Below are positions 1 through 19,552 of a DNA stretch of 64,000 nt, piece after piece. Both the position numbers and the translations under genes were made by a program. This DNA comes from Porphyridium purpureum (lineage: Eukaryota). Position 1 is the stretch's first letter. Each line of letters starts with the position of its first letter. The stretch lies in assembly GCA_008690995.1 (NCBI GenBank), contig VRMN01000002.1, positions 2,170,001-2,234,000 of the forward strand, given 5' to 3'. The notes under the pieces were generated by a model, which was given only the letters and a program-made list of their open reading frames with translations, had not been told where the DNA came from and searched no databases.

Positions 1-3000
1 CCCCACCGGTCGACATAACGCGCCACATGCGCCGTGGCATAAGCGATGTCTGCTCGCGTGGTTCGGCTGAGCCACAGCAGTTGGCCAATCACTGTTCGCT
101 TGTTTGTCGGGCACGCGCGCCCGCCGGGTCCATTGTCGTCGACCCGCTCGCTGAGTGGCGTGCTGCGCACGCGCAAGTTGTCCGCGGTGTGGCCGTTCGC
201 CACATGGGTGGCGTACACCCCCGAATCCAGTATCCATCGGCCGCCGTCGCGATAGATGTGCATGCCGAGATACTTGATAGGGCGCGTACGCGCCGAGTCT
301 GCAATGTATTCGACCTTCTGGTCGATTCTGAAGACGGTCTTCAGTTGTTTGACCGCCACTCGTACCGCATCCGCATTGCCGAAGAGTGCGCCATCGTCGA
401 CGTACATGCTCAGCGTGAGCATGCTGCCGTTCGCGTCGCGGCGCCAGTACTGGTTCTTGTCCGCGTTGGATTCTTGCCATCCAAGCCGCCGGACACGCTC
501 GCGAGCGTCGTGGCTGAAGTCGCTGCCGCTCCTTTTCATTCCGTACAGAGCCTGCGGTAGCTCCACGACAGGCTCGCTGCATGCGGCCATCTTTCTGTAG
601 TCGGCTTCGCTGACTAGACCCTTCACGACCGGGACCAGGTCGCGCAGATATCCGAATGTCGGACGGCCGCCCAATGGTGCACTGGGGTAGGCACACGTTA
701 CGTCGAAGAAGGCGCCGTCGGCGGATGGTCCATGGAGCATGAGCGCCATGCTCATCGAGGCGCGGATCGCCAGCAAACCTGGTGGGCGATCAAAAGGATA
801 CGGTTCTTCGCGCGCGCGACGCCCATCGGCGTCCAGCACGACGCATCCTTGCGCGACGATGCGGCACTTCGTCTTGTGGAACGACGAAGGCATTTCTGAA
901 TTCTTCTTGTTGAAGAGGAGCTTCAACTTAACGAATTGCGCGTTCGGAACGCGCGCCGCCACTGCCTTGTCCATCGTGCGGCGGAAAGGCAGAGCGCCGG
1001 TGCTGGTGAGCGCACGAAGCTCGGATGCTAATGCATGGCGGCCGGCGGGCGTGGCCATCGCCACCGCTGTGGCCACAACTTCTGCCACCCCCAGACCTGC
1101 CGCTTCGTCCTCTGGTCCCCCTGTCGCCGCGCTTGTATACATTGCGTCGCTGCTACTCTCTGCTCGCGTCGCGTCGTTCCGCGTCGCGTCGCTCGCTGCT
1201 GCTGCGTGCACTGGAAGCACACCCAGTTCCGCTGCGCGCGCGCGTAAGCCGGCTGGTTTGCGGCCGCGCATGAAGAATGCTGGCCTACCCGCGATGGCAA
1301 GCCAGTCCTCACCAAAACGGGCAATGCCTTCGGATATGGCAATGTCCTCGGCCGGACTCCACGGCAGCTCAATGCGCCGATACTGTGCTCGTGACGCGAG
1401 CTTTCCGTGCTCGTCTCGGTAGCACTGGCAGTGCATTTGCCTGCATGCGCCGTCACCAGTGTGACGTCGGCTGGGCGCCGGACCCAAAATGCATTTCTCG
1501 CATTCGGTGCTCCCACCGACTATTTTCTTGCACTGTGTGCAGAATGCACGGTCCGGTGCATTGTCGCGTGCTCGCGACCATTGATCACCCGTCGCAATGG
1601 CCTCATCCGGAGGCCGCAGTGCCAAACGTCGCAATGGCCACTTGTCGGGAAGTGGCTTCCATTCGCCGACCTTCCTGATCGCAGATGGCCGCAAGTCGGC
1701 AATGGGCAGGGCGAGCAGGTTTATGGGCTGCCGCGGGTCATTCGGCCTCGGTGCCGTGAACCCAACGACGATTGCAGGCACGCCTTTCGGCTCAAATTTG
1801 CCGCGGCTCTCATCGTATATGAGAATGCCGCTCCCGAATGCAGGGATGGGCTTGTGCCATGTCAGACCGAGCCGTTGCTCGAAGCTGGTCTGCTCCTGCT
1901 TTGCGCCGCGCCAGGCGAGGTTTCTGGCCAGGCAAAAGTAGGCGGCGGCGAACGGATACCACGCGGTCGGCAAGCCAGACTGCATCAGCAGTGCTCGCAC
2001 TGCTCCGTTCAAGTCTGCATGCTTGCGTTCATGCGTCGCGTGCGTGTTCGCCCGGTAAGGTACACCAGTGACTTTCTTCACGCCCTTTTCCGCGATGAAT
2101 CCGTCGAATTCGCCCATGAACTCGCGGCCCTCGTCACACCGCAACACTCGTGGCCAATCACCACGTCCGCGCTGCAGCTCCGTCAACCCGCGAATGCACT
2201 CAGCGGCGGACTTGTCCGCCAGCCCAATTGCTGAGAACCACCCAGTGGCTTCGTCGAGGTGAGTGAGCAGCCACCTGCTGCCATCCACGGCTGCCAGTCC
2301 GGGATCCACAATGTCAATCGACACCACGTCGTTGAACTCGCGCGCTCGTCCGCGCTCTTTGCCAACCGAGTCGTCTCGCCTCACAGCACGCGCGCGCCGC
2401 AGCTTTGCCGCGCTGCATATTCCGCACGTGTCGCGCGACGGCATGTGCAGAACGCAATGGTCCTGCTCTACATGCTCAGCCTCGGCTGTGCCAAGACTGT
2501 GACCGCCGATGATCATTTCGAAGCGGTTGGTTCGAAGCCAATCGAGACCGATCACGAGGTCATTGTGGCCATTGTACACAATCACGTCCTGCTGCTTCTC
2601 TGCTGAATCCAGCACCGCCAGATTCACTGTCGCGCGCCCGCGAGACATGCACTGCGTGCCGTCTGCCAATCGAATGGTCAAGGCATTCGCGGTGCTATTT
2701 GTGCGCACTCGCACCATCGCGCATGCGCTCTCGCTCAGAAAGGTGTGCGTTGCGCCGGTATCGATGACTGCTTTCATCGCCCGGCCGTTCACCCAAGCAT
2801 TCACCTTGAGCAACCCTTTGCCCGCACTGGCGGTCATCAACTCGGCTCCGCCGAGATTGGCATCGCGATCATCGCGCCTGTCTGCACAGTTGTGCGTCGC
2901 TGGCCCCCACACGGAGCACCGATGGCAGTAATAGCGCCCACGCTGATTACTCTTCTTGCCATCTTGTTGCGACTTCGGCGTCTGTCGCGGTCGTGGTCTA

Positions 3001-4274
3001 CTGGCACCGCCTCGTTGCGGTGCGCCACGCTTCTGTCCGCGCCCACGCGCGTCGTTCTGGCCGCCACCACGGTTCCAACCATGCGTGCTCGGCTCTCGCC
3101 AGCCGCCGTCTCGTCCGTCCGCGCGGCTCTGCGCGTACCGCTCTGCATGATTCGCACGCAGGTTCCGCTGCGGTCCAGCTGGTGACCATTGGTCATGCTG
3201 TTGCTGTTGATACTCGTTCGAGCGATCCCGCTGGAAGTCGTTGTATCCTCGTCCGTGCACCCGTGCGCTGCTGCCGCTGGCGGTACCCAAGTCCATTGGC
3301 ACCGGACCATGCTGGTTATAGTTCATCTGGGGGTGGTATGCAGGCTGCATGGCTGACGGGTACGTTCGTGCTGTGATGGGCTGCTGGTCTCGACCACGCT
3401 TAAATATGACTTTGTCGGCAACTAAAGCCAAACGCAAAGCGTCGTCATAGGTGGGAGGGAAGTGAAGCGCTACGTGAGTGGCAATAGAAGTGTCAAGAGA
3501 TTCTGTAAAATAGTGAAGTTTATCTTTGTCTACCAAATTTGGTATACGCAGACAAACTTCACTAAATGCAGCTTCAAAATCTTGGACACTCATTGCACCC
3601 TGCTTCATCTTTTGCAGTTCATCCCGCACGTCATTTTCTGTTTCTTTTGGCTCGAAGCGCCGCTGAAGCGCGAGCAGAAACTCTTCTACCGAGGTGGGTC
3701 TCTGATCAGGTTGTAATGCCTGGTACCAGAGTTGCGCCAATCCGAAGAGGTGAGTCGAAAGCGTCGACACTGCTTCCTCTTCCTCGGTTTCCGTCCAAAG
3801 ACGGCCCTGCGACCGCCAATCCGAGCGCGCCGGGTTGTACACCCGCGAACGCGCTGCTGCCGTCCAGGTCATAATGGCCGCAGTGGATCGCTCGCCGCCA
3901 TAGTACAGCATGGCCGCAGGGCGCATGCAGCTCGGCAAAGCGCCACTTCCACCGGATCCATCGCGAAGCGCCCTCAGACGAACGTTCTCGCTCCGCAGCT
4001 CGGCGAGCTCACTCTGAACAATCGCCGTCCGGGTATTCAGTTCGGTCGCCATCTTGGCGCCGAATTCCTCCGAGAGTTGGCGATGCATTTGGGCGTATGC
4101 CGCATTCAGCATCGCCGCCATCTCTCGTTTCGTTTCCTCGCGCGCGGACTCGCGCCGCGCACTTGCTGCCGCGCCAAGGCGGGTTGCCGAGGCGTTTGCA
4201 CCACCGCGTGCCGGCGACGGTGTTGCTGGGGTACTAGCACCCGCAGCCCTATCCATGTCATATTCCATGACCAA
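1..4274 (-). CDS. Element A unit 1 Gag-Pol polyprotein, partial (3' end lies beyond the window start)
   Basis: Matches the unit 2 ORF shifted by -5636; ATG at 4274. One synonymous difference noticed, at 798. Confidence 0.9.
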   Translation of the reverse strand, partial: MVMEYDMDRAAGASTPATPSPARGGANASATRLGAAASARRESAREETKREMAAMLNAAYAQMHRQLSEEFGAKMATELNTRTAIVQSELAELRSENVRLRALRDGSGGSGALPSCMRPAAMLYYGGERSTAAIMTWTAAARSRVYNPARSDWRSQGRLWTETEEEEAVSTLSTHLFGLAQLWYQALQPDQRPTSVEEFLLALQRRFEPKETENDVRDELQKMKQGAMSVQDFEAAFSEVCLRIPNLVDKDKLHYFTESLDTSIATHVALHFPPTYDDALRLALVADKVIFKRGRDQQPITARTYPSAMQPAYHPQMNYNQHGPVPMDLGTASGSSARVHGRGYNDFQRDRSNEYQQQQHDQWSPAGPQRNLRANHAERYAQSRADGRDGGWREPSTHGWNRGGGQNDARGRGQKRGAPQRGGASRPRPRQTPKSQQDGKKSNQRGRYYCHRCSVWGPATHNCADRRDDRDANLGGAELMTASAGKGLLKVNAWVNGRAMKAVIDTGATHTFLSESACAMVRVRTNSTANALTIRLADGTQCMSRGRATVNLAVLDSAEKQQDVIVYNGHNDLVIGLDWLRTNRFEMIIGGHSLGTAEAEHVEQDHCVLHMPSRDTCGICSAAKLRRARAVRRDDSVGKERGRAREFNDVVSIDIVDPGLAAVDGSRWLLTHLDEATGWFSAIGLADKSAAECIRGLTELQRGRGDWPRVLRCDEGREFMGEFDGFIAEKGVKKVTGVPYRANTHATHERKHADLNGAVRALLMQSGLPTAWYPFAAAYFCLARNLAWRGAKQEQTSFEQRLGLTWHKPIPAFGSGILIYDESRGKFEPKGVPAIVVGFTAPRPNDPRQPINLLALPIADLRPSAIRKVGEWKPLPDKWPLRRLALRPPDEAIATGDQWSRARDNAPDRAFCTQCKKIVGGSTECEKCILGPAPSRRHTGDGACRQMHCQCYRDEHGKLASRAQYRRIELPWSPAEDIAISEGIARFGEDWLAIAGRPAFFMRGRKPAGLRARAAELGVLPVHAAAASDATRNDATRAESSSDAMYTSAATGGPEDEAAGLGVAEVVATAVAMATPAGRHALASELRALTSTGALPFRRTMDKAVAARVPNAQFVKLKLLFNKKNSEMPSSFHKTKCRIVAQGCVVLDADGRRAREEPYPFDRPPGLLAIRASMSMALMLHGPSADGAFFDVTCAYPSAPLGGRPTFGYLRDLVPVVKGLVSEADYRKMAACSEPVVELPQALYGMKRSGSDFSHDARERVRRLGWQESNADKNQYWRRDANGSMLTLSMYVDDGALFGNADAVRVAVKQLKTVFRIDQKVEYIADSARTRPIKYLGMHIYRDGGRWILDSGVYATHVANGHTADNLRVRSTPLSERVDDNGPGGRACPTNKRTVIGQLLWLSRTTRADIAYATAHVARYVDRW

Positions 4275-4502
4275 ACACTGGGCGCGTCGCGCTCACCAGT
4301 TGCGCTTCGAGCGCCTCTTTTTTCCTTCTCGATGTTCGCGGCGCCGATCAGCGTCTTGGCTGTCGCGCTGCCACAGTCGCTTTTCCAAAGCGTGATCGAG
4401 GGTAGAGTTGGGGAATGACCGAATGATAGAAACACTACCACAATAGGTGGTTAGTCAAGCAAGCAAGAAGAAGAAAGATGAGGGAAACACCGCAGCGCAA
4501 AG

Positions 4503-4518
4503 GCTGGGCTCATAACCC
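4503..4518 (-). promoter_or_regulatory. Primer-binding site GGGTTATGAGCCCAGC, complementary to the anticodon arm of initiator tRNA-Met (half-tRNA priming); also at 10139-10154 and 28565-28580
   Basis: The plus strand reads GCTGGGCTCATAACCC, the tRNA-iMet anticodon stem-loop with the CAT anticodon, 2 nt from the LTR end. Drosophila copia and yeast Ty5 use this type of PBS. Confidence 0.85.
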
Positions 4519-4520
4519 TT

Positions 4521-4817
4521 TGATGATAGCGTCTTCGTGAAGCACGCGTATACCAAACGTGTACCAATAGTAAACTACTGGTGGCTAGCTGAAGCAAGAG
4601 GTCCACAACAAGACGACTTTACTCCTTAACACAACCTAGCTCTTGCCTCAAAAGGAGACAGAGCGCCGACTCGTCGGCCGTCTCTCACACTCTAATGATA
4701 TACTACTGTGGTTAACCATTACGGTCACCAACCAACGGAGAGTTGTCATCATTAAGTATTTGATGACTCCTCATCACGTCATCAGGCAGGCAGAGAGGGA
4801 TGACTATATTCCACGCA
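4521..4817 (-). repeat. LTR of element A (297 bp, TG...CA), shared by units 1 and 2
   Basis: Bounded by the PBS (2-nt spacer) on one side and the PPT on the other; repeated at 10157-10453 and 28583-28877. Confidence 0.9.
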
Positions 4818-4833
4818 CCCCCTCATCACTTCT
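4818..4833 (-). promoter_or_regulatory. Polypurine tract of element A (AGAAGTGATGAGGGGG); also at 10454-10469
   Basis: Purine-rich run between the pol stop codon and the LTR start. Confidence 0.8.
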
Positions 4834-4855
4834 GCGCTGGCTGCAAAGGAACGAA

Positions 4856-7800
4856 TCACACTCGCTCGACAAGGTGCCAGCGGGTGTACGGATCACTGTC
4901 ACACGACATCTTCTCATCATCATGGCTGTACGCATAGCCGCGCATGCCAGCGTCATCGTCGCAGTCGTCGGGCTGCATGAGCATCGCGAAGGCGTTGCCA
5001 CGGTTTGCGGCGGAGCGAGCATGCGTCATACGCTGGGCGATGCCAAGGGATAAGCTTGCACCGTACAGGCCCCACGCGGCTGCATGGCCGCGAAACACGT
5101 CGGTGGCAATCGGCTTCGTCAAGCCGTCAGCGATGTTGTCGCGCGTAGCGACATAGACGAACCTGACGAGTCCGTCCGCTGCTATCTCGTGCAACCATCT
5201 CAGAGAGATGCGCTGCATCTTTGGCGCATGCAGTAGCCGGTCACTGTGGCCGCGCTCCACCGCGCGCAAAGTCGACTCGTTGTCGCACCGCACAACGGTC
5301 GGAGGCCAGCGCCTCAAAAGTTCTTCCGCCAGTGTCGCCACTGGGAACACGCTGCCTTGCGCTGCGTCGTGCAGCGCTACCAACTCAGCCTCGGTCGTCG
5401 AGGTGCTGACGCGCCGCTGGCGCCGACTGGTCCAGTCTACAAGGTGTCGGCATCTGCCATTCGATATGAAGAGCACGGCGCCGCTCGTGGATGACGGTGC
5501 CGAGAAGTCGGCATCAGCCCACGCGTGCAACCGAACGTCGCGACTGCCTGTCGCGGGTATGTCGTATTGCAGACAGACGTCCGCATGCTTCTTCAGATAC
5601 CCGACGATCTCGTCGAGCGCGCGATCCGCGCTTGGCCCCCACCGGTCGACATAACGCGCCACATGCGCCGTGGCATAAGCGATGTCTGCTCGCGTGGTTC
5701 GGCTGAGCCACAGCAGTTGGCCAATCACTGTTCGCTTGTTTGTCGGGCACGCGCGCCCGCCGGGTCCATTGTCGTCGACCCGCTCGCTGAGTGGCGTGCT
5801 GCGCACGCGCAAGTTGTCCGCGGTGTGGCCGTTCGCCACATGGGTGGCGTACACCCCCGAATCCAGTATCCATCGGCCGCCGTCGCGATAGATGTGCATG
5901 CCGAGATACTTGATAGGGCGCGTACGCGCCGAGTCTGCAATGTATTCGACCTTCTGGTCGATTCTGAAGACGGTCTTCAGTTGTTTGACCGCCACTCGTA
6001 CCGCATCCGCATTGCCGAAGAGTGCGCCATCGTCGACGTACATGCTCAGCGTGAGCATGCTGCCGTTCGCGTCGCGGCGCCAGTACTGGTTCTTGTCCGC
6101 GTTGGATTCTTGCCATCCAAGCCGCCGGACACGCTCGCGAGCGTCGTGGCTGAAGTCGCTGCCGCTCCTTTTCATTCCGTACAGAGCCTGCGGTAGCTCC
6201 ACGACAGGCTCGCTGCATGCGGCCATCTTTCTGTAGTCGGCTTCGCTGACTAGACCCTTCACGACCGGGACCAGGTCGCGCAGATATCCGAATGTCGGAC
6301 GGCCGCCCAATGGTGCACTGGGGTAGGCACACGTTACGTCGAAGAAGGCGCCGTCGGCGGATGGTCCATGGAGCATGAGCGCCATGCTCATCGAGGCGCG
6401 GATCGCCAGCAAACCTGGTGGGCGATCAAAAGGGTACGGTTCTTCGCGCGCGCGACGCCCATCGGCGTCCAGCACGACGCATCCTTGCGCGACGATGCGG
6501 CACTTCGTCTTGTGGAACGACGAAGGCATTTCTGAATTCTTCTTGTTGAAGAGGAGCTTCAACTTAACGAATTGCGCGTTCGGAACGCGCGCCGCCACTG
6601 CCTTGTCCATCGTGCGGCGGAAAGGCAGAGCGCCGGTGCTGGTGAGCGCACGAAGCTCGGATGCTAATGCATGGCGGCCGGCGGGCGTGGCCATCGCCAC
6701 CGCTGTGGCCACAACTTCTGCCACCCCCAGACCTGCCGCTTCGTCCTCTGGTCCCCCTGTCGCCGCGCTTGTATACATTGCGTCGCTGCTACTCTCTGCT
6801 CGCGTCGCGTCGTTCCGCGTCGCGTCGCTCGCTGCTGCTGCGTGCACTGGAAGCACACCCAGTTCCGCTGCGCGCGCGCGTAAGCCGGCTGGTTTGCGGC
6901 CGCGCATGAAGAATGCTGGCCTACCCGCGATGGCAAGCCAGTCCTCACCAAAACGGGCAATGCCTTCGGATATGGCAATGTCCTCGGCCGGACTCCACGG
7001 CAGCTCAATGCGCCGATACTGTGCTCGTGACGCGAGCTTTCCGTGCTCGTCTCGGTAGCACTGGCAGTGCATTTGCCTGCATGCGCCGTCACCAGTGTGA
7101 CGTCGGCTGGGCGCCGGACCCAAAATGCATTTCTCGCATTCGGTGCTCCCACCGACTATTTTCTTGCACTGTGTGCAGAATGCACGGTCCGGTGCATTGT
7201 CGCGTGCTCGCGACCATTGATCACCCGTCGCAATGGCCTCATCCGGAGGCCGCAGTGCCAAACGTCGCAATGGCCACTTGTCGGGAAGTGGCTTCCATTC
7301 GCCGACCTTCCTGATCGCAGATGGCCGCAAGTCGGCAATGGGCAGGGCGAGCAGGTTTATGGGCTGCCGCGGGTCATTCGGCCTCGGTGCCGTGAACCCA
7401 ACGACGATTGCAGGCACGCCTTTCGGCTCAAATTTGCCGCGGCTCTCATCGTATATGAGAATGCCGCTCCCGAATGCAGGGATGGGCTTGTGCCATGTCA
7501 GACCGAGCCGTTGCTCGAAGCTGGTCTGCTCCTGCTTTGCGCCGCGCCAGGCGAGGTTTCTGGCCAGGCAAAAGTAGGCGGCGGCGAACGGATACCACGC
7601 GGTCGGCAAGCCAGACTGCATCAGCAGTGCTCGCACTGCTCCGTTCAAGTCTGCATGCTTGCGTTCATGCGTCGCGTGCGTGTTCGCCCGGTAAGGTACA
7701 CCAGTGACTTTCTTCACGCCCTTTTCCGCGATGAATCCGTCGAATTCGCCCATGAACTCGCGGCCCTCGTCACACCGCAACACTCGTGGCCAATCACCAC

Positions 7801-9910
7801 GTCCGCGCTGCAGCTCCGTCAACCCGCGAATGCACTCAGCGGCGGACTTGTCCGCCAGCCCAATTGCTGAGAACCACCCAGTGGCTTCGTCGAGGTGAGT
7901 GAGCAGCCACCTGCTGCCATCCACGGCTGCCAGTCCGGGATCCACAATGTCAATCGACACCACGTCGTTGAACTCGCGCGCTCGTCCGCGCTCTTTGCCA
8001 ACCGAGTCGTCTCGCCTCACAGCACGCGCGCGCCGCAGCTTTGCCGCGCTGCATATTCCGCACGTGTCGCGCGACGGCATGTGCAGAACGCAATGGTCCT
8101 GCTCTACATGCTCAGCCTCGGCTGTGCCAAGACTGTGACCGCCGATGATCATTTCGAAGCGGTTGGTTCGAAGCCAATCGAGACCGATCACGAGGTCATT
8201 GTGGCCATTGTACACAATCACGTCCTGCTGCTTCTCTGCTGAATCCAGCACCGCCAGATTCACTGTCGCGCGCCCGCGAGACATGCACTGCGTGCCGTCT
8301 GCCAATCGAATGGTCAAGGCATTCGCGGTGCTATTTGTGCGCACTCGCACCATCGCGCATGCGCTCTCGCTCAGAAAGGTGTGCGTTGCGCCGGTATCGA
8401 TGACTGCTTTCATCGCCCGGCCGTTCACCCAAGCATTCACCTTGAGCAACCCTTTGCCCGCACTGGCGGTCATCAACTCGGCTCCGCCGAGATTGGCATC
8501 GCGATCATCGCGCCTGTCTGCACAGTTGTGCGTCGCTGGCCCCCACACGGAGCACCGATGGCAGTAATAGCGCCCACGCTGATTACTCTTCTTGCCATCT
8601 TGTTGCGACTTCGGCGTCTGTCGCGGTCGTGGTCTACTGGCACCGCCTCGTTGCGGTGCGCCACGCTTCTGTCCGCGCCCACGCGCGTCGTTCTGGCCGC
8701 CACCACGGTTCCAACCATGCGTGCTCGGCTCTCGCCAGCCGCCGTCTCGTCCGTCCGCGCGGCTCTGCGCGTACCGCTCTGCATGATTCGCACGCAGGTT
8801 CCGCTGCGGTCCAGCTGGTGACCATTGGTCATGCTGTTGCTGTTGATACTCGTTCGAGCGATCCCGCTGGAAGTCGTTGTATCCTCGTCCGTGCACCCGT
8901 GCGCTGCTGCCGCTGGCGGTACCCAAGTCCATTGGCACCGGACCATGCTGGTTATAGTTCATCTGGGGGTGGTATGCAGGCTGCATGGCTGACGGGTACG
9001 TTCGTGCTGTGATGGGCTGCTGGTCTCGACCACGCTTAAATATGACTTTGTCGGCAACTAAAGCCAAACGCAAAGCGTCGTCATAGGTGGGAGGGAAGTG
9101 AAGCGCTACGTGAGTGGCAATAGAAGTGTCAAGAGATTCTGTAAAATAGTGAAGTTTATCTTTGTCTACCAAATTTGGTATACGCAGACAAACTTCACTA
9201 AATGCAGCTTCAAAATCTTGGACACTCATTGCACCCTGCTTCATCTTTTGCAGTTCATCCCGCACGTCATTTTCTGTTTCTTTTGGCTCGAAGCGCCGCT
9301 GAAGCGCGAGCAGAAACTCTTCTACCGAGGTGGGTCTCTGATCAGGTTGTAATGCCTGGTACCAGAGTTGCGCCAATCCGAAGAGGTGAGTCGAAAGCGT
9401 CGACACTGCTTCCTCTTCCTCGGTTTCCGTCCAAAGACGGCCCTGCGACCGCCAATCCGAGCGCGCCGGGTTGTACACCCGCGAACGCGCTGCTGCCGTC
9501 CAGGTCATAATGGCCGCAGTGGATCGCTCGCCGCCATAGTACAGCATGGCCGCAGGGCGCATGCAGCTCGGCAAAGCGCCACTTCCACCGGATCCATCGC
9601 GAAGCGCCCTCAGACGAACGTTCTCGCTCCGCAGCTCGGCGAGCTCACTCTGAACAATCGCCGTCCGGGTATTCAGTTCGGTCGCCATCTTGGCGCCGAA
9701 TTCCTCCGAGAGTTGGCGATGCATTTGGGCGTATGCCGCATTCAGCATCGCCGCCATCTCTCGTTTCGTTTCCTCGCGCGCGGACTCGCGCCGCGCACTT
9801 GCTGCCGCGCCAAGGCGGGTTGCCGAGGCGTTTGCACCACCGCGTGCCGGCGACGGTGTTGCTGGGGTACTAGCACCCGCAGCCCTATCCATGTCATATT
9901 CCATGACCAA
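4856..9910 (-). CDS. Element A unit 2 intact single-ORF polyprotein, 1684 aa: Gag - aspartic protease - integrase - Cys-rich module - Myb/SANT-like domain - Copia-type RT - RNase H
   Basis: Gag with GPVPMDLG. PR VIDTGAT...DLVIGLDWL. INT HCVLH..CGIC, SIDIVD, RCDEGREF, HERK, KFEPKG..IVVGF. RT KCRIVAQG, FDVTCAY, QALYGMKRSG, MYVDD. RNase H WADADF, STTEAE, CDN, NIADGLTK. Confidence 0.95.
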   Translation of the reverse strand: MVMEYDMDRAAGASTPATPSPARGGANASATRLGAAASARRESAREETKREMAAMLNAAYAQMHRQLSEEFGAKMATELNTRTAIVQSELAELRSENVRLRALRDGSGGSGALPSCMRPAAMLYYGGERSTAAIMTWTAAARSRVYNPARSDWRSQGRLWTETEEEEAVSTLSTHLFGLAQLWYQALQPDQRPTSVEEFLLALQRRFEPKETENDVRDELQKMKQGAMSVQDFEAAFSEVCLRIPNLVDKDKLHYFTESLDTSIATHVALHFPPTYDDALRLALVADKVIFKRGRDQQPITARTYPSAMQPAYHPQMNYNQHGPVPMDLGTASGSSARVHGRGYNDFQRDRSNEYQQQQHDQWSPAGPQRNLRANHAERYAQSRADGRDGGWREPSTHGWNRGGGQNDARGRGQKRGAPQRGGASRPRPRQTPKSQQDGKKSNQRGRYYCHRCSVWGPATHNCADRRDDRDANLGGAELMTASAGKGLLKVNAWVNGRAMKAVIDTGATHTFLSESACAMVRVRTNSTANALTIRLADGTQCMSRGRATVNLAVLDSAEKQQDVIVYNGHNDLVIGLDWLRTNRFEMIIGGHSLGTAEAEHVEQDHCVLHMPSRDTCGICSAAKLRRARAVRRDDSVGKERGRAREFNDVVSIDIVDPGLAAVDGSRWLLTHLDEATGWFSAIGLADKSAAECIRGLTELQRGRGDWPRVLRCDEGREFMGEFDGFIAEKGVKKVTGVPYRANTHATHERKHADLNGAVRALLMQSGLPTAWYPFAAAYFCLARNLAWRGAKQEQTSFEQRLGLTWHKPIPAFGSGILIYDESRGKFEPKGVPAIVVGFTAPRPNDPRQPINLLALPIADLRPSAIRKVGEWKPLPDKWPLRRLALRPPDEAIATGDQWSRARDNAPDRAFCTQCKKIVGGSTECEKCILGPAPSRRHTGDGACRQMHCQCYRDEHGKLASRAQYRRIELPWSPAEDIAISEGIARFGEDWLAIAGRPAFFMRGRKPAGLRARAAELGVLPVHAAAASDATRNDATRAESSSDAMYTSAATGGPEDEAAGLGVAEVVATAVAMATPAGRHALASELRALTSTGALPFRRTMDKAVAARVPNAQFVKLKLLFNKKNSEMPSSFHKTKCRIVAQGCVVLDADGRRAREEPYPFDRPPGLLAIRASMSMALMLHGPSADGAFFDVTCAYPSAPLGGRPTFGYLRDLVPVVKGLVSEADYRKMAACSEPVVELPQALYGMKRSGSDFSHDARERVRRLGWQESNADKNQYWRRDANGSMLTLSMYVDDGALFGNADAVRVAVKQLKTVFRIDQKVEYIADSARTRPIKYLGMHIYRDGGRWILDSGVYATHVANGHTADNLRVRSTPLSERVDDNGPGGRACPTNKRTVIGQLLWLSRTTRADIAYATAHVARYVDRWGPSADRALDEIVGYLKKHADVCLQYDIPATGSRDVRLHAWADADFSAPSSTSGAVLFISNGRCRHLVDWTSRRQRRVSTSTTEAELVALHDAAQGSVFPVATLAEELLRRWPPTVVRCDNESTLRAVERGHSDRLLHAPKMQRISLRWLHEIAADGLVRFVYVATRDNIADGLTKPIATDVFRGHAAAWGLYGASLSLGIAQRMTHARSAANRGNAFAMLMQPDDCDDDAGMRGYAYSHDDEKMSCDSDPYTRWHLVERV

Positions 9911-10156
9911 ACACTGGGCGCGTCGCGCTCACCAGTTGCGCTTCGAGCGCCTCTTTTTTCCTTCTCGATGTTCGCGGCGCCGATCAGCGTCTTGGCTGTC
10001 GCGCTGCCACAGTCGCTTTTCCAAAGCGTGATCGAGGGTAGAGTTGGGGAATGACCGAATGATAGAAACACTACCACAATAGGTGGTTAGTCAAGCAAGC
10101 AAGAAGAAGAAAGATGAGGGAAACACCGCAGCGCAAAGGCTGGGCTCATAACCCTT

Positions 10157-10453
10157 TGATGATAGCGTCTTCGTGAAGCACGCGTATACCAAACGTGTAC
10201 CAATAGTAAACTACTGGTGGCTAGCTGAAGCAAGAGGTCCACAACAAGACGACTTTACTCCTTAACACAACCTAGCTCTTGCCTCAAAAGGAGACAGAGC
10301 GCCGACTCGTCGGCCGTCTCTCACACTCTAATGATATACTACTGTGGTTAACCATTACGGTCACCAACCAACGGAGAGTTGTCATCATTAAGTATTTGAT
10401 GACTCCTCATCACGTCATCAGGCAGGCAGAGAGGGATGACTATATTCCACGCA
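10157..10453 (-). repeat. LTR of element A shared by units 2 and 3
   Basis: Identical by eye to 4521-4817. Confidence 0.9.
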
Positions 10454-10491
10454 CCCCCTCATCACTTCTGCGCTGGCTGCAAAGGAACGAA

Positions 10492-13400
10492 TCACACTCG
10501 CTCGACAAGGTGCCAGCGGGTGTACGGATCACTGTCACACGACATCTTCTCATCATCATGGCTGTACGCATAGCCGCGCATGCCAGCGTCATCGTCGCAG
10601 TCGTCGGGCTGCATGAGCATCGCGAAGGCGTTGCCACGGTTTGCGGCGGAGCGAGCATGCGTCATACGCTGGGCGATGCCAAGGGATAAGCTTGCACCGT
10701 ACAGGCCCCACGCGGCTGCATGGCCGCGAAACACGTCGGTGGCAATCGGCTTCGTCAAGCCGTCAGCGATGTTGTCGCGCGTAGCGACATAGACGAACCT
10801 GACGAGTCCGTCCGCTGCTATCTCGTGCAACCATCTCAGAGAGATGCGCTGCATCTTTGGCGCATGCAGTAGCCGGTCACTGTGGCCGCGCTCCACCGCG
10901 CGCAAAGTCGACTCGTTGTCGCACCGCACAACGGTCGGAGGCCAGCGCCTCAAAAGTTCTTCCGCCAGTGTCGCCACTGGGAACACGCTGCCTTGCGCTG
11001 CGTCGTGCAGCGCTACCAACTCAGCCTCGGTCGTCGAGGTGCTGACGCGCCGCTGGCGCCGACTGGTCCAGTCTACAAGGTGTCGGCATCTGCCATTCGA
11101 TATGAAGAGCACGGCGCCGCTCGTGGATGACGGTGCCGAGAAGTCGGCATCAGCCCACGCGTGCAACCGAACGTCGCGACTGCCTGTCGCGGGTATGTCG
11201 TATTGCAGACAGACGTCCGCATGCTTCTTCAGATACCCGACGATCTCGTCGAGCGCGCGATCCGCGCTTGGCCCCCACCGGTCGACATAACGCGCCACAT
11301 GCGCCGTGGCATAAGCGATGTCTGCTCGCGTGGTTCGGCTGAGCCACAGCAGTTGGCCAATCACTGTTCGCTTGTTTGTCGGGCACGCGCGCCCGCCGGG
11401 TCCATTGTCGTCGACCCGCTCGCTGAGTGGCGTGCTGCGCACGCGCAAGTTGTCCGCGGTGTGGCCGTTCGCCACATGGGTGGCGTACACCCCCGAATCC
11501 AGTATCCATCGGCCGCCGTCGCGATAGATGTGCATGCCGAGATACTTGATAGGGCGCGTACGCGCCGAGTCTGCAATGTATTCGACCTTCTGGTCGATTC
11601 TGAAGACGGTCTTCAGTTGTTTGACCGCCACTCGTACCGCATCCGCATTGCCGAAGAGTGCGCCATCGTCGACGTACATGCTCAGCGTGAGCATGCTGCC
11701 GTTCGCGTCGCGGCGCCAGTACTGGTTCTTGTCCGCGTTGGATTCTTGCCATCCAAGCCGCCGGACACGCTCGCGAGCGTCGTGGCTGAAGTCGCTGCCG
11801 CTCCTTTTCATTCCGTACAGAGCCTGCGGTAGCTCCACGACAGGCTCGCTGCATGCGGCCATCTTTCTGTAGTCGGCTTCGCTGACTAGACCCTTCACGA
11901 CCGGGACCAGGTCGCGCAGATATCCGAATGTCGGACGGCCGCCCAATGGTGCACTGGGGTAGGCACACGTTACGTCGAAGAAGGCGCCGTCGGCGGATGG
12001 TCCATGGAGCATGAGCGCCATGCTCATCGAGGCGCGGATCGCCAGCAAACCTGGTGGGCGATCAAAAGGGTACGGTTCTTCGCGCGCGCGACGCCCATCG
12101 GCGTCCAGCACGACGCATCCTTGCGCGACGATGCGGCACTTCGTCTTGTGGAACGACGAAGGCATTTCTGAATTCTTCTTGTTGAAGAGGAGCTTCAACT
12201 TAACGAATTGCGCGTTCGGAACGCGCGCCGCCACTGCCTTGTCCATCGTGCGGCGGAAAGGCAGAGCGCCGGTGCTGGTGAGCGCACGAAGCTCGGATGC
12301 TAATGCATGGCGGCCGGCGGGCGTGGCCATCGCCACCGCTGTGGCCACAACTTCTGCCACCCCCAGACCTGCCGCTTCGTCCTCTGGTCCCCCTGTCGCC
12401 GCGCTTGTATACATTGCGTCGCTGCTACTCTCTGCTCGCGTCGCGTCGTTCCGCGTCGCGTCGCTCGCTGCTGCTGCGTGCACTGGAAGCACACCCAGTT
12501 CCGCTGCGCGCGCGCGTAAGCCGGCTGGTTTGCGGCCGCGCATGAAGAATGCTGGCCTACCCGCGATGGCAAGCCAGTCCTCACCAAAACGGGCAATGCC
12601 TTCGGATATGGCAATGTCCTCGGCCGGACTCCACGGCAGCTCAATGCGCCGATACTGTGCTCGTGACGCGAGCTTTCCGTGCTCGTCTCGGTAGCACTGG
12701 CAGTGCATTTGCCTGCATGCGCCGTCACCAGTGTGACGTCGGCTGGGCGCCGGACCCAAAATGCATTTCTCGCATTCGGTGCTCCCACCGACTATTTTCT
12801 TGCACTGTGTGCAGAATGCACGGTCCGGTGCATTGTCGCGTGCTCGCGACCATTGATCACCCGTCGCAATGGCCTCATCCGGAGGCCGCAGTGCCAAACG
12901 TCGCAATGGCCACTTGTCGGGAAGTGGCTTCCATTCGCCGACCTTCCTGATCGCAGATGGCCGCAAGTCGGCAATGGGCAGGGCGAGCAGGTTTATGGGC
13001 TGCCGCGGGTCATTCGGCCTCGGTGCCGTGAACCCAACGACGATTGCAGGCACGCCTTTCGGCTCAAATTTGCCGCGGCTCTCATCGTATATGAGAATGC
13101 CGCTCCCGAATGCAGGGATGGGCTTGTGCCATGTCAGACCGAGCCGTTGCTCGAAGCTGGTCTGCTCCTGCTTTGCGCCGCGCCAGGCGAGGTTTCTGGC
13201 CAGGCAAAAGTAGGCGGCGGCGAACGGATACCACGCGGTCGGCAAGCCAGACTGCATCAGCAGTGCTCGCACTGCTCCGTTCAAGTCTGCATGCTTGCGT
13301 TCATGCGTCGCGTGCGTGTTCGCCCGGTAAGGTACACCAGTGACTTTCTTCACGCCCTTTTCCGCGATGAATCCGTCGAATTCGCCCATGAACTCGCGGC

Positions 13401-14527
13401 CCTCGTCACACCGCAACACTCGTGGCCAATCACCACGTCCGCGCTGCAGCTCCGTCAACCCGCGAATGCACTCAGCGGCGGACTTGTCCGCCAGCCCAAT
13501 TGCTGAGAACCACCCAGTGGCTTCGTCGAGGTGAGTGAGCAGCCACCTGCTGCCATCCACGGCTGCCAGTCCGGGATCCACAATGTCAATCGACACCACG
13601 TCGTTGAACTCGCGCGCTCGTCCGCGCTCTTTGCCAACCGAGTCGTCTCGCCTCACAGCACGCGCGCGCCGCAGCTTTGCCGCGCTGCATATTCCGCACG
13701 TGTCGCGCGACGGCATGTGCAGAACGCAATGGTCCTGCTCTACATGCTCAGCCTCGGCTGTGCCAAGACTGTGACCGCCGATGATCATTTCGAAGCGGTT
13801 GGTTCGAAGCCAATCGAGACCGATCACGAGGTCATTGTGGCCATTGTACACAATCACGTCCTGCTGCTTCTCTGCTGAATCCAGCACCGCCAGATTCACT
13901 GTCGCGCGCCCGCGAGACATGCACTGCGTGCCGTCTGCCAATCGAATGGTCAAGGCATTCGCGGTGCTATTTGTGCGCACTCGCACCATCGCGCATGCGC
14001 TCTCGCTCAGAAAGGTGTGCGTTGCGCCGGTATCGATGACTGCTTTCATCGCCCGGCCGTTCACCCAAGCATTCACCTTGAGCAACCCTTTGCCCGCACT
14101 GGCGGTCATCAACTCGGCTCCGCCGAGATTGGCATCGCGATCATCGCGCCTGTCTGCACAGTTGTGCGTCGCTGGCCCCCACACGGAGCACCGATGGCAG
14201 TAATAGCGCCCACGCTGATTACTCTTCTTGCCATCTTGTTGCGACTTCGGCGTCTGTCGCGGTCGTGGTCTACTGGCACCGCCTCGTTGCGGTGCGCCAC
14301 GCTTCTGTCCGCGCCCACGCGCGTCGTTCTGGCCGCCACCACGGTTCCAACCATGCGTGCTCGGCTCTCGCCAGCCGCCGTCTCGTCCGTCCGCGCGGCT
14401 CTGCGCGTACCGCTCTGCATGATTCGCACGCAGGTTCCGCTGCGGTCCAGCTGGTGACCATTGGTCATGCTGTTGCTGTTGATACTCGTTCGAGCGATCC
14501 CGCTGGAAGTCGTTGTATCCTCGTCCG
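10492..14527 (-). pseudogene. Element A unit 3, 3' half (NC-PR-INT-Myb-RT-RH, frame open), separated from gag by insertion of B
   Basis: Matches unit 2 up to the TCCG target duplication at 14524-14527. Confidence 0.9.
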
Positions 14528-14815
14528 TGCCGTGATATGGTCCTGAATGGCCCACTCACTCCCCTCCTCCGCTAGCCCGGCCGCACGGAGAACCTATACC
14601 CCAATCCTGCTGGCCCCATCGGCCCTCTCTTTTACTCTTGCTAGATCGCCGCGACGGCGGTCTTAAATACCCTTCTCTACCCTACGCTAACCGTTAGACT
14701 GTTTAAGAACCTAAGAATAACCGCTGCCCGGTACGGACAAGGATTGTTATGGTACAGTGCGGGGCAGTGCTGTACAGTGCGTGGAGGGGTACGGCGGAGA
14801 GAGCGAGTCATGACA
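14528..14815 (-). repeat. 3' LTR of element B
   Basis: Identical by eye to 27026-27313; preceded on the minus strand by the G-rich tract TTAGGGGTTAGTGGGGATG (about 14816-14834). Confidence 0.93.
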
Positions 14816-15730
14816 CATCCCCACTAACCCCTAAGCCGCTTGCGCTAGTGCGCGGCAGAGGAACTTGGACAGTCTGTCGGAGAAAACCGTAAAACCGGAA
14901 CCGTGCAAAGTTACACGCGAAAATGTGCAACGACTGTCTGAAAAAACGAGATCGAAAGACGAGGAAAAGGACGAGTAATGCTTCGGATCGAGCGCGAAAC
15001 GGACGCAGTAGGTACAATACTGTACCTCAAGTACTGAACACCAGGTGAACACCCGAGCCAGAGCATCACGAAGATGTCGAAGGCCTCGAACACTGCGAAC
15101 ACTTATTGCGCGGGCGAACAAACGCCAGACGACTCGTGAAGCTCTCCGGGACATCATCCAAGGAAATGACAAACACTGGCCCTAGGAACTCGAAGAGCGG
15201 TTCGCGCATTCGCTCGCGCGCGGAGTGCGACTTTTGCGGATTTCCCGGCCGGAAATTGTGAATGCGATTACCTTCGCAAAGATGAAAGCAACGAGAAAAC
15301 GCTTTCACATCGTTCACTTTCTAGGCTGACACAACGCACATGCCAATGTTTAGCCGGGTCTGCCGGTGAACTCAAGGAGAACTCGAAATGCACCTTCTTT
15401 TGTAGTCGAAAGTTTCATCGTCGAGGCAAACTCGATGCGCGCACTCTTTCTCTGCGTTTGAGTTGACGTAGGTGACACAAATCGGTGCAGCCTCCATCTC
15501 GACATCGAGGGCAATGCGCGAACGCTCGTTTCGGCTCCACGACGCCTCCCTGCGCGATGCGAGAACTGTCGTTCTCTGCTGTTCGACTTGTTTTCGACTG
15601 CGCATCGGCGCTTCGACGAAATGAATGTGGGATTCGCTGTCGCACACTGTGTACATTCAAGGCGCAACCGCGCTGGATTTGAGAGACTCGAAGTCCGCGT
15701 TCAAACTCACGAGGAAAGACTCGCGTGCGC

Positions 15731-18700
15731 TTATTGGAACCGACGACCAGACCGTGATCGAAGGACATCAGCGGGATTTTGCGCAGACTCGAGAAACTCG
15801 GCAACCAATGTTTCCGGCAAGTCCTCGGACTTCTCCCAAGTCCATTCAGAGCGCTTGGCCCCGTACCACGCGACGAGAAACTCGGTGGAGCCATCGATGA
15901 GGCGCTGTTTCTGCAAACTTGCTATCTCAGAGAGGACACTGTCGCGACGCTCTCCATCCGCGTTGAAGTCATCCCTGAGTTCTACAGATTGATCAACACG
16001 CTTCAGCCTGTCAAGATGCACGAAGAATGTCTCGAAGGCATTGCGGATCGTAGCGCGGGCGCCATCGATGACTTCGAGTATATACGGACCGACCCACGGG
16101 CTCTCGAGTTTACGACCTTGAAGTGTACTCACCCCACGCCAGAGCATTACCGCGTCGCCCTCCGAGAGGCGCTGGCCTTGCTTTGTGACCTTTTCGGCAC
16201 TGCGCCTCGCATCCTTGTCGTGGCTTTTATCCGATGCGCGCAACGCTACTTGATGCATCATCCGAATCCTACCGCGTAGCTGATAGCCAAATTCCTCGAG
16301 GCTGTCCGTTTCCAGCTCGGCGTCGATCGCTGGCTGAGAATAGTCATTCGCAGTACGTCCAAACATAGCTTCGTATGGACTCACGCCAGTCGATGAATGT
16401 CGCGACGAATTATAAGCGTGCACGGATAACGGAAGCCACAGATCCCACCCGATAGACGCGTCGTGATCTGCCATCATGCCGGATAACAAGCCGCACAGCG
16501 TTCGGTTATAGCGTTCCACGACTCCGTTTGCTTTTGGATTATGTGCCATAGTAAAGACCTTCTTGATGCCGAGAAGCTGGCTGACTCGTGACAAAAACTC
16601 GGATCGAAATGCAGGTCCGTTGTCACTAAGAAGGTTCTCGGGGGGCCCAAACGGTGCGACCCATACGTGCAGAAAAGCTTCCACCGCAGATCGAGCTGAC
16701 TCGTCGACCACCGGTGCTGCGACGGTAAAACGAGTGAACAGATCAGCGACCACCAAGACCTTGGTATATCCGCGAGGTGTCTTCGGGGAAATCGTGAGGA
16801 GATCGACTGCAACAAGCTCGAAGCGTCGCGTTGGCCGACGTCTGCCGATGACTACCTGCTGCCTTCGCAGACCCTTTCGCCTTGAGCAAAACCGACATGA
16901 TTGGATGAATTCGCTGACATCCGAGGTCCAACCCGGCCAGTACCATGACGCATCCGCGATCCTTGAGATCGTCTTAGCCGCGCCCATATGCCCGCCTGCA
17001 CCCGTTGAATGATAGTATCCCAGAACACGACTCACGAACGCATCCGGAACCACACGCCGAGGCTTTTTTGTTGCCGCCATCAGAATGCCCGCCTCGTTCC
17101 AGAAGTATTCCGGGTCGCTGTACTGTGGTGTGCTTCGAGCGAGGTTCTCCATTTCTTTGGCGATGAGCTCATCTCTCGGGTACGCTGCCTTCAGCTCTTC
17201 GTCAGTTGGTAGTTCGTGTGCCGTGTTGCTGTCTTCACTCACAGCTGTGACGAGGTACGCCACGCGGTCGCCACGAGAACTCCTGCTTTCTTGTTCGTCG
17301 AGATTCATACGCGAGAGTGCGTCAGGTACCTTATTCGACGCACCCTTCACGTACTCAATAACGAACGAATAATCTGCCAAAGCCAATGCCCACCTTGCTA
17401 GACGGCCCCTCGGCTCCCGCAGATTCAACAACCATCGGAGCGGCTCGTGATCAGAGCGGACTATAATCGACTCACCGTATAGATAATGCCGACACTTACG
17501 TACCGCCCACACAACCGCAAGGCACTCTAGTTCTGTCACGGCGTAGTTCTTCTCCGCGGCAGTCAATGACCGCGATAGAAAGCACACCGGTCGATACTCG
17601 CTCGAAACGCGCTGATACAGCGCTGCTCCGAGTCCCGTCAACGAGGCATCTGTATCAAGGACCCACTCTGCTCCCGCAGATGGCTGATACAAAACCACCG
17701 TTGGGTCCGTCAGCGCCGACTTAAGGGCCTCGAATGCTAGCTTCTGCCCAGCGCCAAACCGATTGGCCCAATCGCTGCATTCAACGACCTGCTTCTTCGA
17801 ATGTTTTTTTGCGGACATGGCGAGACCTTCGAGAGACGCACGCAACGGAGCTGCGACGCGCTCGAAGTTCGGAACGAAGTCACGAAACCAGCCCACAACG
17901 CCTAGAAACCGCTGAACTTCTGTCGGATTTCTCGGTTCGGTCCATTGTCGGATGACCTCGATGTTTCGCTCTTTCGGGCGAATCTTACCATTTTGCACTT
18001 GGTGACCAAGAAATTCGATTTTGGTGCACATGAAGGAGCACTTCTTCAAAGAAAATGTGAGACCTTCTTTTTCGAAGCGTTCCAGAATTTGATCCAGTAT
18101 TTGAATGTGATCCTCTCCAGACGATGAACCTACGATGAGGTCATCGATGTAAATGAGTGCGTGTTTCCAGCGCAGGTCACCGAGGACCGTGTTCATCAAT
18201 CGTTGGAATGTTGCTGGGCTATTCGACATGCCTTGACCAATGACGCAGTATCGGAAAAGCCCCAGTGGGGTAATCATCGCGGTCAAGTCTCGGGAATCAG
18301 CGTGCAGCGGGATCTGAAAGAACCCGTCAGTCAAATCGAGAGTACTGAACAACGAATATCGACCAGCCCAATCGAGGCATTCATGCACGAGTGGGATCGG
18401 GTACTTGTCCTTCACCGTAATGGCGTTCAGGTTCCTGAAATCCGTAGTTAATCGCCACGCACCCGTCGGTTTCCGGATCAAGACGTTTGCCGAGGCAAAC
18501 GGGCCATTGCACGGTTCCAAGACATGATGATCAAGGAGCTTGCGTACCATTGTTTCTTCGGCTTCGCGCTCTGCCTCCGACCGTCGTCGCAATTTCGCCG
18601 CGGGAAAGGTCGCGCCCGGCTCCACCCGGATAACGTGCTCGACAGAGCGGGCCCTTCCGGCTTCTGCTCGGAACACTCGCCACCGCTTTTTGAGAACCCC

Positions 18701-19552
18701 ACGAATCTTCTCCCGAGTGCCGGAGTCGAGGATATGACCGAGGTCAAGCGCATTGATGAGATCGAGAGTCTCTCGTCCCATTTGCGATTCGGTCACTCGA
18801 ATACTCGCCAGCTTTTGCCCAGCGCGGATGCAGACTGGCTCCTTCGACTTGTTCTGTATAGTCCACGTTCTCTGATGTGTGTCCACAACACCTTCTGGAA
18901 GCTCGATGAGAATTTCACATTGTCCGAGTCCCGGAATCTTTGTATCCGTAACGCTTCGGATGAACGACCTTTCCTTCGTCTTATTTGTGAAGCACGGAAT
19001 ATGTTCGCCGTTCCGCATCTCGACGATTCGGTTCTTGAAGTTGAGCGAATGCGAGTGACGGTGCCAGAATTCCATGCCAATGATCAGGTCTTCCGCCAAT
19101 TCTTCGACGACGATGCATCGAAGCTTCGTTCGAAGTTGTCCCAGCCTTACCTCGACGAGTGTCTCCCATGCCGGGCCCATGTTTCCTCCCTGCGCGTGGT
19201 CCACGCGCGTACCAGTAGGCTCCATCGTGGCACCCCATCTTTCGGCGACCGTCCGCGACGTGTACGAGTACCCCGTGGCTCCCGTGTCCACTAGCGCTAT
19301 TATCGGAAGCCACAGTCCGGAAGAATCGAGGACGCGGATTGCAACAAAGGGTCGGCGGTCGATACTCCCACGCACTGAACAAAGGACTGCCTTGTCGAAT
19401 ATCTTCACAGTCCCGTACTCCCATGACACCGGTAGTAAATCGGATGGATCAGCCGGTGTGTCGCACTTTGACAAGCTCGGAACGGCCTCGATGCTCATCG
19501 CCTGTGCCGGATGCGCCCCTGCATCCGCTGATCCTTTTTGCTTTCCAGCGAG
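15731..19552 (-). CDS. Element B Pol: protease, RT, RNase H, integrase, GPY motif, C-terminal chromodomain; in frame with gag after one UGA (first ATG at 19498)
   Basis: LVDTGAT; LDLTDGFFQI, YIDD; TDAS, ELECLA, SDH, DALSR; H-H-C-C zinc finger, VDL, SDNG, NGVVER; WVGPY; EFLVAWYG...WTWE. Confidence 0.95.
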   Translation of the reverse strand, partial: LAGKQKGSADAGAHPAQAMSIEAVPSLSKCDTPADPSDLLPVSWEYGTVKIFDKAVLCSVRGSIDRRPFVAIRVLDSSGLWLPIIALVDTGATGYSYTSRTVAERWGATMEPTGTRVDHAQGGNMGPAWETLVEVRLGQLRTKLRCIVVEELAEDLIIGMEFWHRHSHSLNFKNRIVEMRNGEHIPCFTNKTKERSFIRSVTDTKIPGLGQCEILIELPEGVVDTHQRTWTIQNKSKEPVCIRAGQKLASIRVTESQMGRETLDLINALDLGHILDSGTREKIRGVLKKRWRVFRAEAGRARSVEHVIRVEPGATFPAAKLRRRSEAEREAEETMVRKLLDHHVLEPCNGPFASANVLIRKPTGAWRLTTDFRNLNAITVKDKYPIPLVHECLDWAGRYSLFSTLDLTDGFFQIPLHADSRDLTAMITPLGLFRYCVIGQGMSNSPATFQRLMNTVLGDLRWKHALIYIDDLIVGSSSGEDHIQILDQILERFEKEGLTFSLKKCSFMCTKIEFLGHQVQNGKIRPKERNIEVIRQWTEPRNPTEVQRFLGVVGWFRDFVPNFERVAAPLRASLEGLAMSAKKHSKKQVVECSDWANRFGAGQKLAFEALKSALTDPTVVLYQPSAGAEWVLDTDASLTGLGAALYQRVSSEYRPVCFLSRSLTAAEKNYAVTELECLAVVWAVRKCRHYLYGESIIVRSDHEPLRWLLNLREPRGRLARWALALADYSFVIEYVKGASNKVPDALSRMNLDEQESRSSRGDRVAYLVTAVSEDSNTAHELPTDEELKAAYPRDELIAKEMENLARSTPQYSDPEYFWNEAGILMAATKKPRRVVPDAFVSRVLGYYHSTGAGGHMGAAKTISRIADASWYWPGWTSDVSEFIQSCRFCSRRKGLRRQQVVIGRRRPTRRFELVAVDLLTISPKTPRGYTKVLVVADLFTRFTVAAPVVDESARSAVEAFLHVWVAPFGPPENLLSDNGPAFRSEFLSRVSQLLGIKKVFTMAHNPKANGVVERYNRTLCGLLSGMMADHDASIGWDLWLPLSVHAYNSSRHSSTGVSPYEAMFGRTANDYSQPAIDAELETDSLEEFGYQLRGRIRMMHQVALRASDKSHDKDARRSAEKVTKQGQRLSEGDAVMLWRGVSTLQGRKLESPWVGPYILEVIDGARATIRNAFETFFVHLDRLKRVDQSVELRDDFNADGERRDSVLSEIASLQKQRLIDGSTEFLVAWYGAKRSEWTWEKSEDLPETLVAEFLESAQNPADVLRSRSGRRFQ

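Follow-up and report, generated by a model that had tools for sequence, protein, structure and literature searches.

The window analysed here is a 64,000-nucleotide stretch of the red alga Porphyridium purpureum (GenBank assembly GCA_008690995.1, contig VRMN01000002.1, positions 2,170,001 to 2,234,000 of the forward strand), and it begins with a head-to-tail array of a long terminal repeat (LTR) retrotransposon. Each unit, read on the minus strand, consists of a 298-bp LTR and 5,338 internal bases with one open reading frame (ORF) of 1,682 residues. As judged from its sequence, the unit is a hybrid, in which a Ty3/gypsy-type Gag and protease are followed by a copia-type integrase, reverse transcriptase (RT) and RNase H. 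The array is an ordinary, known arrangement and the element is the interesting part; its hybrid build was not noticed in the preliminary description of this DNA. On balance we favour a reading in which three units of this hybrid element lie head to tail and share single LTRs, the tandem having likely arisen by local LTR recombination and likely comprising few units. The domains of unit B are as follows:

8915..9571, minus strand: Ty3/gypsy-type capsid (Retrotrans_gag, Ty3_capsid, PMDLG motif), from Pfam, profiles and tree
8150..8455, minus strand: Ty3/gypsy-type (DDI1-like) aspartic protease with DTG, from Pfam, Protein Data Bank (PDB) profiles and region profiles
7295..8107, minus strand: copia-type integrase (HHCC, DDE core, SH3-like region), from alignment, profiles and integrase search
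7055..7177, minus strand: Cys/His-rich segment after the integrase core, in four of nine aligned relatives, from alignment
6845..7009, minus strand: predicted Myb/SANT-like three-helix domain of the integrase tail, in seven of nine aligned relatives, from Pfam, profiles and fold searches
5855..6682, minus strand: divergent copia-type RT (YVDD), from Pfam, alignment and profiles
5069..5542, minus strand: copia-type RNase H, from alignment and profiles

Within the single ORF, Pfam finds Retrotrans_gag, Ty3_capsid, gag-asp_proteas, rve and RVT_2 (E 4.7e-6, below the cut-off) in that order, and the enzymes follow the protease, integrase, RT, RNase H order of Ty1/copia. A standard Ty1/copia assignment was rejected on the Gag, the protease and the LTR ends: the copia Gag (PF14223) and protease (PF22936) are absent from the element both in Pfam and in region profiles. 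A standard Ty3/gypsy assignment was likewise rejected, there being no RVT_1 and no RT, RNase H, integrase order, nor a Gmr1-type order with a gypsy RT. When region profiles were scored against a copia (n = 70) and a gypsy (n = 19) set, the best scores were 15 versus 144 bits for the capsid and 6 versus 58 bits for the protease, as against 91 versus 36, 48 versus 10 and 71 versus 5 bits for integrase, RT and RNase H, respectively; in these profiles the affinity switch falls between protease and integrase. A separate integrase search gave three matches outside the lineage, all copia-type, and SH3_retrovirus was found in the relative P0263.

With RT and RNase H as the query we recovered 79 proteins, all copia-type or of the hybrid lineage: nine belong to the lineage (seven named or clustered as P. 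purpureum), and the gypsy gag and protease families occur in none of the 70 relatives outside it. The full hybrid build is present in six clusters, P0003, with an RT that aligns at 50%, having a weak RVT_2 or none, and a seventh family, P0264, combines a gypsy protease with the copia enzymes. A Gag-protease profile made from six regions and run over 1.84 billion representatives gave at least 150 matches, 41 of which were scanned (all 37 non-query matches of at least 600 residues and four shorter ones). An RT is present in 20 of the 41 and absent from 21; the RT behind the gag is RVT_1 in 20 of 20, and one of these proteins has an additional, upstream RVT_2. The best-scoring gypsy Gags are both from P. 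purpureum, the family P0109 (144 bits) and the inner gypsy element of the window itself (141 bits), with the next at 84 bits. Among PDB sequence profiles, the capsid matches Ty3 Gag (E 1.2e-6), dArc and DDI1, and the copia capsid at the zinc knuckle only.

Several points weigh against this reading or blunt its evidence. Similarity in RT and in Gag was the basis for choosing the copia and gypsy profile sets, so the non-circular part of the comparison is the integrase test together with the failed cross-matches. The predicted capsid structure (predicted local distance difference test, pLDDT, 87) resembles PEG10 (Z 13.0) and the copia capsid (Z 12.2) almost equally; it is a retroelement capsid either way and its structure does not discriminate copia from gypsy. 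In the capsid tree (56 rows, two omitted for short matches) support for joining the hybrid Gags to those of Porphyridium gypsy elements is only 80/85 and 88/77, the bootstrap not having settled; P0032 stands apart on a long branch, and P0103-P0106, which are labelled hybrid in the tree, show no RT.

The donor of gag and protease was likely a local Porphyridium gypsy element. We propose that an ancestral Porphyridium copia element acquired both genes from a gypsy lineage living in the same genome, the switch point lying between protease and integrase, and that the hybrid lineage would then have diversified into at least six families. The gypsy gag-protease might instead be an older trait common to hybrids in other eukaryotes, or have been captured twice, which is possible but in our view on the unlikely side. 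The modest tree support and the separation of P0032 from the rest would fit such a history, whereas two P. purpureum families lead the gypsy Gag scores by a wide margin, and no non-Porphyridium RT relative among the 70 has the hybrid build. In the literature searched, which leaves most subscription journals and repeat databases outside it, we found no description of the lineage, of a copia element with a gypsy-like gag or of a Myb-bearing integrase; the hybrid build is not described in the sections consulted of PMC2836005, PMC2806351 and PMC5445492. Elsewhere in P. purpureum, the single 1,558-residue ORF of P0263 contains two copies each of the integrase tail, RT and RNase H, an internal tandem duplication.

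The integrase tail is predicted to contain a Myb-like domain on the basis of several weak, agreeing signals. Pfam matches PF00249 (Myb) with E 1.6e-4 in the element and, for two relatives, with E 8.7e-5 and 3.3e-5, the TBF1 profile matches with E 0.0013 and 0.0005, and fold searches of the domain are headed by TRF1, TRF2 and c-Myb. On the other side, the Pfam score of the element is 22.2 versus a cut-off of 24.4, no Foldseek match reaches E<=0.001, the best VIA Z is 5.9 on a model with mean pLDDT 61, and P0028, P0030, P0263 and P0264 are without the domain. In the ESM Atlas, all leads for the integrase region stayed below 0.9, and the Cys/Myb region had none. Pfam scans of the element protein contain no Chromo match. 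For the Cys/His-rich segment, which is poorly modelled, zf-piccolo was rejected (E 0.036) and no credible family emerged.

The array that carries these units was confirmed as observed in the sequence, and is laid out as follows:

1..4517, minus strand: internal region of unit A, 821 bases of its 3' end cut off (period scan)
4518..4815, minus strand: LTR common to units A and B, 298 bp, element-strand ends 5'-CG...AG-3' (loose ends and LTR comparison)
4816..4832, minus strand: polypurine tract before the 3' LTR of unit B (sequence)
4856..9904, minus strand: unit B, intact gag-pol ORF of 1,682 residues, P0005 (ORF and cluster search)
10140..10153, minus strand: primer binding site (PBS) directly after the LTR (sequence)
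10154..10451, minus strand: LTR common to units B and C (LTR comparison)
10452..14527, minus strand: 3' part of unit C, identical to unit B (sequence comparison)
27318..28579, minus strand: 5' part of unit C, leader and start of gag (sequence comparison)
28580..28877, minus strand: outermost 5' LTR of the array, adjoining host DNA (loose ends and LTR comparison)
28878..28925, plus strand: host flank with GTTCAG at bases 19-24, start of an 11-bp repeat present three times (motif and repeat scan)

The exact 5,636-bp period given in the preliminary description holds across 1..14530 with one mismatch and is the single dominant period in a k-mer scan and self-BLAST; the third unit picks up again at 27314..28877, also with one mismatch to the unit. 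Both inter-unit differences are synonymous, as had been stated: position 798 has A versus G at 6434 and 12070 (TAT/TAC), and 9002 has T versus G at 27428 (CGA/CGC), for an inter-unit identity of 99.98%. The description of one LTR per junction without intervening host DNA also stands, since the LTRs at 4518-4815, 10154-10451 and 28580-28877 are identical, 298 bp long and placed one at every junction, with the units in the same orientation and LTR and internal regions alternating. Its term 'full-length elements' fits unit B (4518-10451), the only whole uninterrupted unit in the window, but neither the left unit, A, which lacks 821 bases at the window edge, nor the right unit, C, in which a gypsy insertion (14528-27313, target-site duplication (TSD) TCCG) interrupts the ORF at codon 338. 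The LTR limits were set from loose ends of other insertions in the public sequencing runs X1, X3, X8 and X22.

Whether the tandem is real had to be judged from short-read contigs and 150-base reads. That it is an assembly artefact, with a single element laid down repeatedly, seems to us decidedly unlikely, even though the units are 99.98% identical and no read spans an internal-LTR-internal junction. A contig from X2 does cross the LTR, but it carries no proof of a tandem junction, as a de Bruijn graph closes such a loop for any multicopy LTR element. A further point on the side of an artefact is that positions 4492, 10128 and 28554 are G in all units and A in the X1, X3, X4 and X8 contigs and in four of four X22 reads, so that the base in every unit is missing from five runs; this G would be either a private allele or a consensus error. 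Conversely, a 12.8-kb nest splits unit C and is missing from A and B, the joining of different loci would bring differences of about 1%, and read depth allows three to four copies of the window alleles. The breaks between contigs coincide with an inter-unit single-nucleotide polymorphism (SNP): the X1 contig begins exactly one base past the 3366/27428 SNP, which favours a real polymorphism. In X3 and X4, contigs connect the final 28-29 bases of the LTR to the unique flank with no differences (just under the 31-base rule), and the locus appears to be occupied in both runs.

The depth of the X4 contigs relative to unique DNA is 7.8-10.9 over the internal region, 31-39 over the LTR and 3.4-4.4 for the window alleles at 28496/28498; in X3 it is 4.8 over the internal region and 19 over the LTR. 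Contig depth is not true copy number, and X4, whose depth is flat over unique DNA, was guessed to be a DNA run; with those reservations, the figures suggest about 8-11 internal copies of the family in all, about 3-4 of them of the window haplotype. Clustered at 90%, the unit protein belongs to a group of 16 (15 listed), which is spread over 12 contigs and whose named members are from Porphyridium purpureum.

The preliminary description had taken the array for an expanding satellite, possibly at a centromere or subtelomere, and had proposed read depth as a check of copy number. Some compact genomes have transposon nests as marks of their centromeres, at least 28.9 kb here is pure LTR-element DNA from three families, and the array runs past the window edge, its far end and any TSD lying to the left, a point that also counts against our own account of a few units. 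A long satellite is nevertheless very improbable. The rough X4 figures leave little room for one, the depth of about 3-4 for the window alleles argues against it, and the family as a whole, at an internal depth of 7.8-10.9 in X4 and 4.8 in X3, is already spread over 12 contigs. A host start codon lies 132 bp from the last LTR, in gene-dense DNA, and a scan of the window found no telomere-like array. Nothing observed indicates a centromere or telomere, though a centromeric position may be possible. The proposal thus went unsupported, and the array is likely short, with only a few units.

Within the limits of sequence evidence, the origin by LTR-mediated recombination put forward in the preliminary description is supported. 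Of the 15 family proteins aligned, only P0005 and P0016, the whole and the split unit, have the residues 563I, 830V, 1536T and 1670S; the other family copies are 96.1-99.7% identical. With four private variants in common, the units are local duplicates or derive from one source copy, and are not stray family members. In the scheme we prefer, one element copy would have inserted upstream of the host gene; the 5' and 3' LTRs of this copy would have undergone unequal exchange on sister chromatids to give a two-unit tandem, and a further exchange would have added the third unit. A gypsy element would then have jumped into the outermost unit, and a second gypsy into the first. The SNPs form a ladder, in which unit C has the family-type G, B acquires T and A acquires a second change, and this fits stepwise duplication.

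A real tandem could also have arrived in one event, as a cDNA multimer or read-through copy, its one-base steps being errors of the RT. One substitution per unit step and private variants in common are what a single source would give; moreover, the ORF is intact and the element is read in the RNA run X22. Shared-LTR tandems are common in plants (rice, Arabidopsis, almond, cotton), and unequal exchange and multimer insertion are both held open for them in the sections consulted of Morales-Diaz et al. 2025 (PMC11899658); tandems of Cassandra and BARE1 are on record (an excerpt of PMC7215508), and cDNA multimers are described for Ty1 (an excerpt of PMC5371812). We still consider arrival as a multimer unlikely: an identical source copy is not seen elsewhere among the 15 listed family proteins, and the confinement of the gypsy nest to unit C is compatible with either route. 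Unequal exchange is preferred because it yields local copies by necessity. As far as the cited sections describe them, the plant tandems resemble the present array in alternating LTR and internal regions, a single LTR at each junction, near-identical units and the same two candidate routes; the Porphyridium array differs in its red-algal host and intact coding unit, and its TSD is unseen because the far end lies beyond the window.

The LTRs end in CG...AG rather than TG...CA, as seen at loose ends in X1, X3, X8 and X22 and at the window's own flank, and a TG remains between polypurine tract and LTR. The putative PBS reads like the complement of the anticodon arm of an initiator tRNA, a candidate match. 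No tRNA genes were found in the 64-kb window. All right-hand flanks seen after 4815/10451/28877 (X1, X3, X22 and the window) start with A, in contrast to a C at the internal junction. An excerpt of PMC5371799 describes half-tRNA priming for Drosophila copia and Ty5. Over 27300-32900, the depth of X1 and X8 changes abruptly, by 4- to 14-fold, at the borders of genes, a pattern expected of RNA; should both be RNA runs, the gag region of the element is transcribed. In the raw RNA run X22, coverage of the internal region is low.

Insertion of the element is likely anchored on a motif. The rows shown include five distinct left flanks of 30 bases, four of which have CTGTAC at bases 6-11, 19 bases from the LTR; these four comprise three unmixed or majority loci and one two-contig mix, and the fifth flank has TGT at the same position. 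At bases 19-24 of the right flanks, the four unmixed rows read GTACAG, GTACAC and GTTCAG once each and an unlike sequence once, GTTCAG being the flank in the window; GTACAC and GTTCAG are each one mismatch away from GTACAG. A post-hoc bound for any 6-mer common to three of four flanks at one offset is 2e-5. Set against this, the flanks are few, unpaired and partly from RNA, and there are 7 and 40 further loose-end rows beyond those shown. Metagenome contigs searched for the LTR end yielded no matches, and thus no paired flanks and no TSD.

CTGTAC forms part of a longer intergenic motif. Within the window, this longer CACTGTAC occurs 12 times versus 0.9 expected: never inside the nine known genes, eight times outside them and four times in the outer gypsy LTRs. 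Six of the eight extragenic sites lie 297-357 bases before a start codon. CACTGTAC/GTACAGTG is a candidate promoter element of Porphyridium purpureum. The sites are at 34098, 44789-44833, 46910-46936, 55915 and 63254, and in the outer gypsy LTRs at 14752-14779 and 27250-27277; they often form inverted pairs some 300-360 bp ahead of start codons, and there are two in each outer gypsy LTR. Insertion would be anchored 18-19 bases from CTGTAC/GTACAG through the Myb-like integrase tail or through a host factor on the motif, the least tested step of our scheme; that the Myb-like domain is the cause is a guess. In its fullest form, the proposal is that copia enzymes are packed in a capsid and protease taken from a gypsy element within the host's own genome, and that the TRF/Tbf1-like Myb domain itself reads the CACTGTAC promoter motif, inserts 18-19 bases away and joins non-CA ends; we offer this whole as speculation and doubt that it is right in full. 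Telomeric targeting, raised by the TRF-like matches, was dropped on finding no telomere repeats in the flanks. In fission yeast, Tf1 insertion is directed by the host protein Sap1 (an excerpt of PMC5371812). Going by that excerpt, both elements would insert near promoters at motif-set sites; Tf1 needs a host protein, whereas the Porphyridium integrase has its own predicted Myb-like domain with a putative role.

The element shares with Ty1/copia elements, including the half-tRNA-primed Drosophila copia and Ty5 in so far as the excerpt cited above covers them, a single ORF in the protease, integrase, RT, RNase H order, copia integrase, RT and RNase H and, putatively, the likeness of the PBS to an initiator-tRNA anticodon arm. 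It differs from them in its non-copia Gag and protease, CG...AG LTR ends and predicted Myb-like integrase tail. The P. purpureum gypsy families (P0109 and the element at 20875-26715) have a homologous capsid with a PMELG/PMDLG motif and a DDI1-like protease, but they have RVT_1, the protease, RT, RNase H, integrase order and TG..CA LTRs. Among red-algal elements, PyRE10G was reportedly titled by Peddigari et al. in 2008 as a copia element with a gypsy-like part. That part is reportedly the integrase, whereas in the hybrid the integrase is copia-like and the gag-protease gypsy-like. PyRE10G (Porphyra) and CoPorcru1/2 (Porphyridium) are copia elements of the GalEa clade according to the sections consulted of PMC3587641, and the PBS of our element differs from the tRNA-Met 3'-end complement quoted there, so that by PBS it does not belong to GalEa. 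In CoDi-A, a group of diatom copia elements, the C-terminus of the integrase bears a chromodomain (Llorens et al. 2009, PMC2774666, in part); these elements resemble the present one in having an extra, probably targeting, C-terminal integrase domain. Membership of CoDi-A was rejected: there is no Chromo match in the present element, which has a predicted Myb-like domain in that place, and a gypsy-type gag or protease is not mentioned for CoDi-A in that part of PMC2774666.

Shared-LTR tandems being common, the array by itself contributes little. Convention keeps copia and gypsy apart as two superfamilies, and a successful, diversified hybrid lineage would show that packaging and replication modules are exchangeable; with the probable donor family of gag-protease still in the same genome, it offers a system for testing module exchange. 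If the Myb-like tail does set the insertion site, target choice in an LTR retrotransposon would be by direct reading of DNA, with sequence-specific targeting built into the integrase. Porphyridium purpureum is a small, culturable alga in which the targeting idea is testable.

The nest in unit C amounts to 12.8 kb and consists of two gypsy elements:

14528..27313, minus strand: outer Ty3/gypsy element in unit C, identical 288-bp TG..CA LTRs, TSD TCCG (Pfam and LTR comparison)
20875..26715, minus strand: inner Ty3/gypsy element within the outer, identical 291-bp LTRs, TSD CTCAC (Pfam and LTR comparison)

Where the tRNA primer site would be expected, the outer element has a 14-base palindrome (27012-27025) and is possibly self-priming. 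The leader of the inner element contains a 388-bp tandem duplication (25723-26454) that repeats the PBS and about 30 LTR bases, followed by 46 other bases ending in CA.

Outside the array, an ORF at 59349-61007 on the plus strand has a SAS-6 N-terminal domain (E 1.5e-6, above the cut-off) followed by a coiled coil; the host lineage is not known to have centrioles or flagella. A gene for an RWP-RK transcription factor lies on the minus strand at 51998-55036, and the gene in whose upstream region the array sits, at 29010-30896 on the plus strand, encodes a flavin amine-oxidoreductase.

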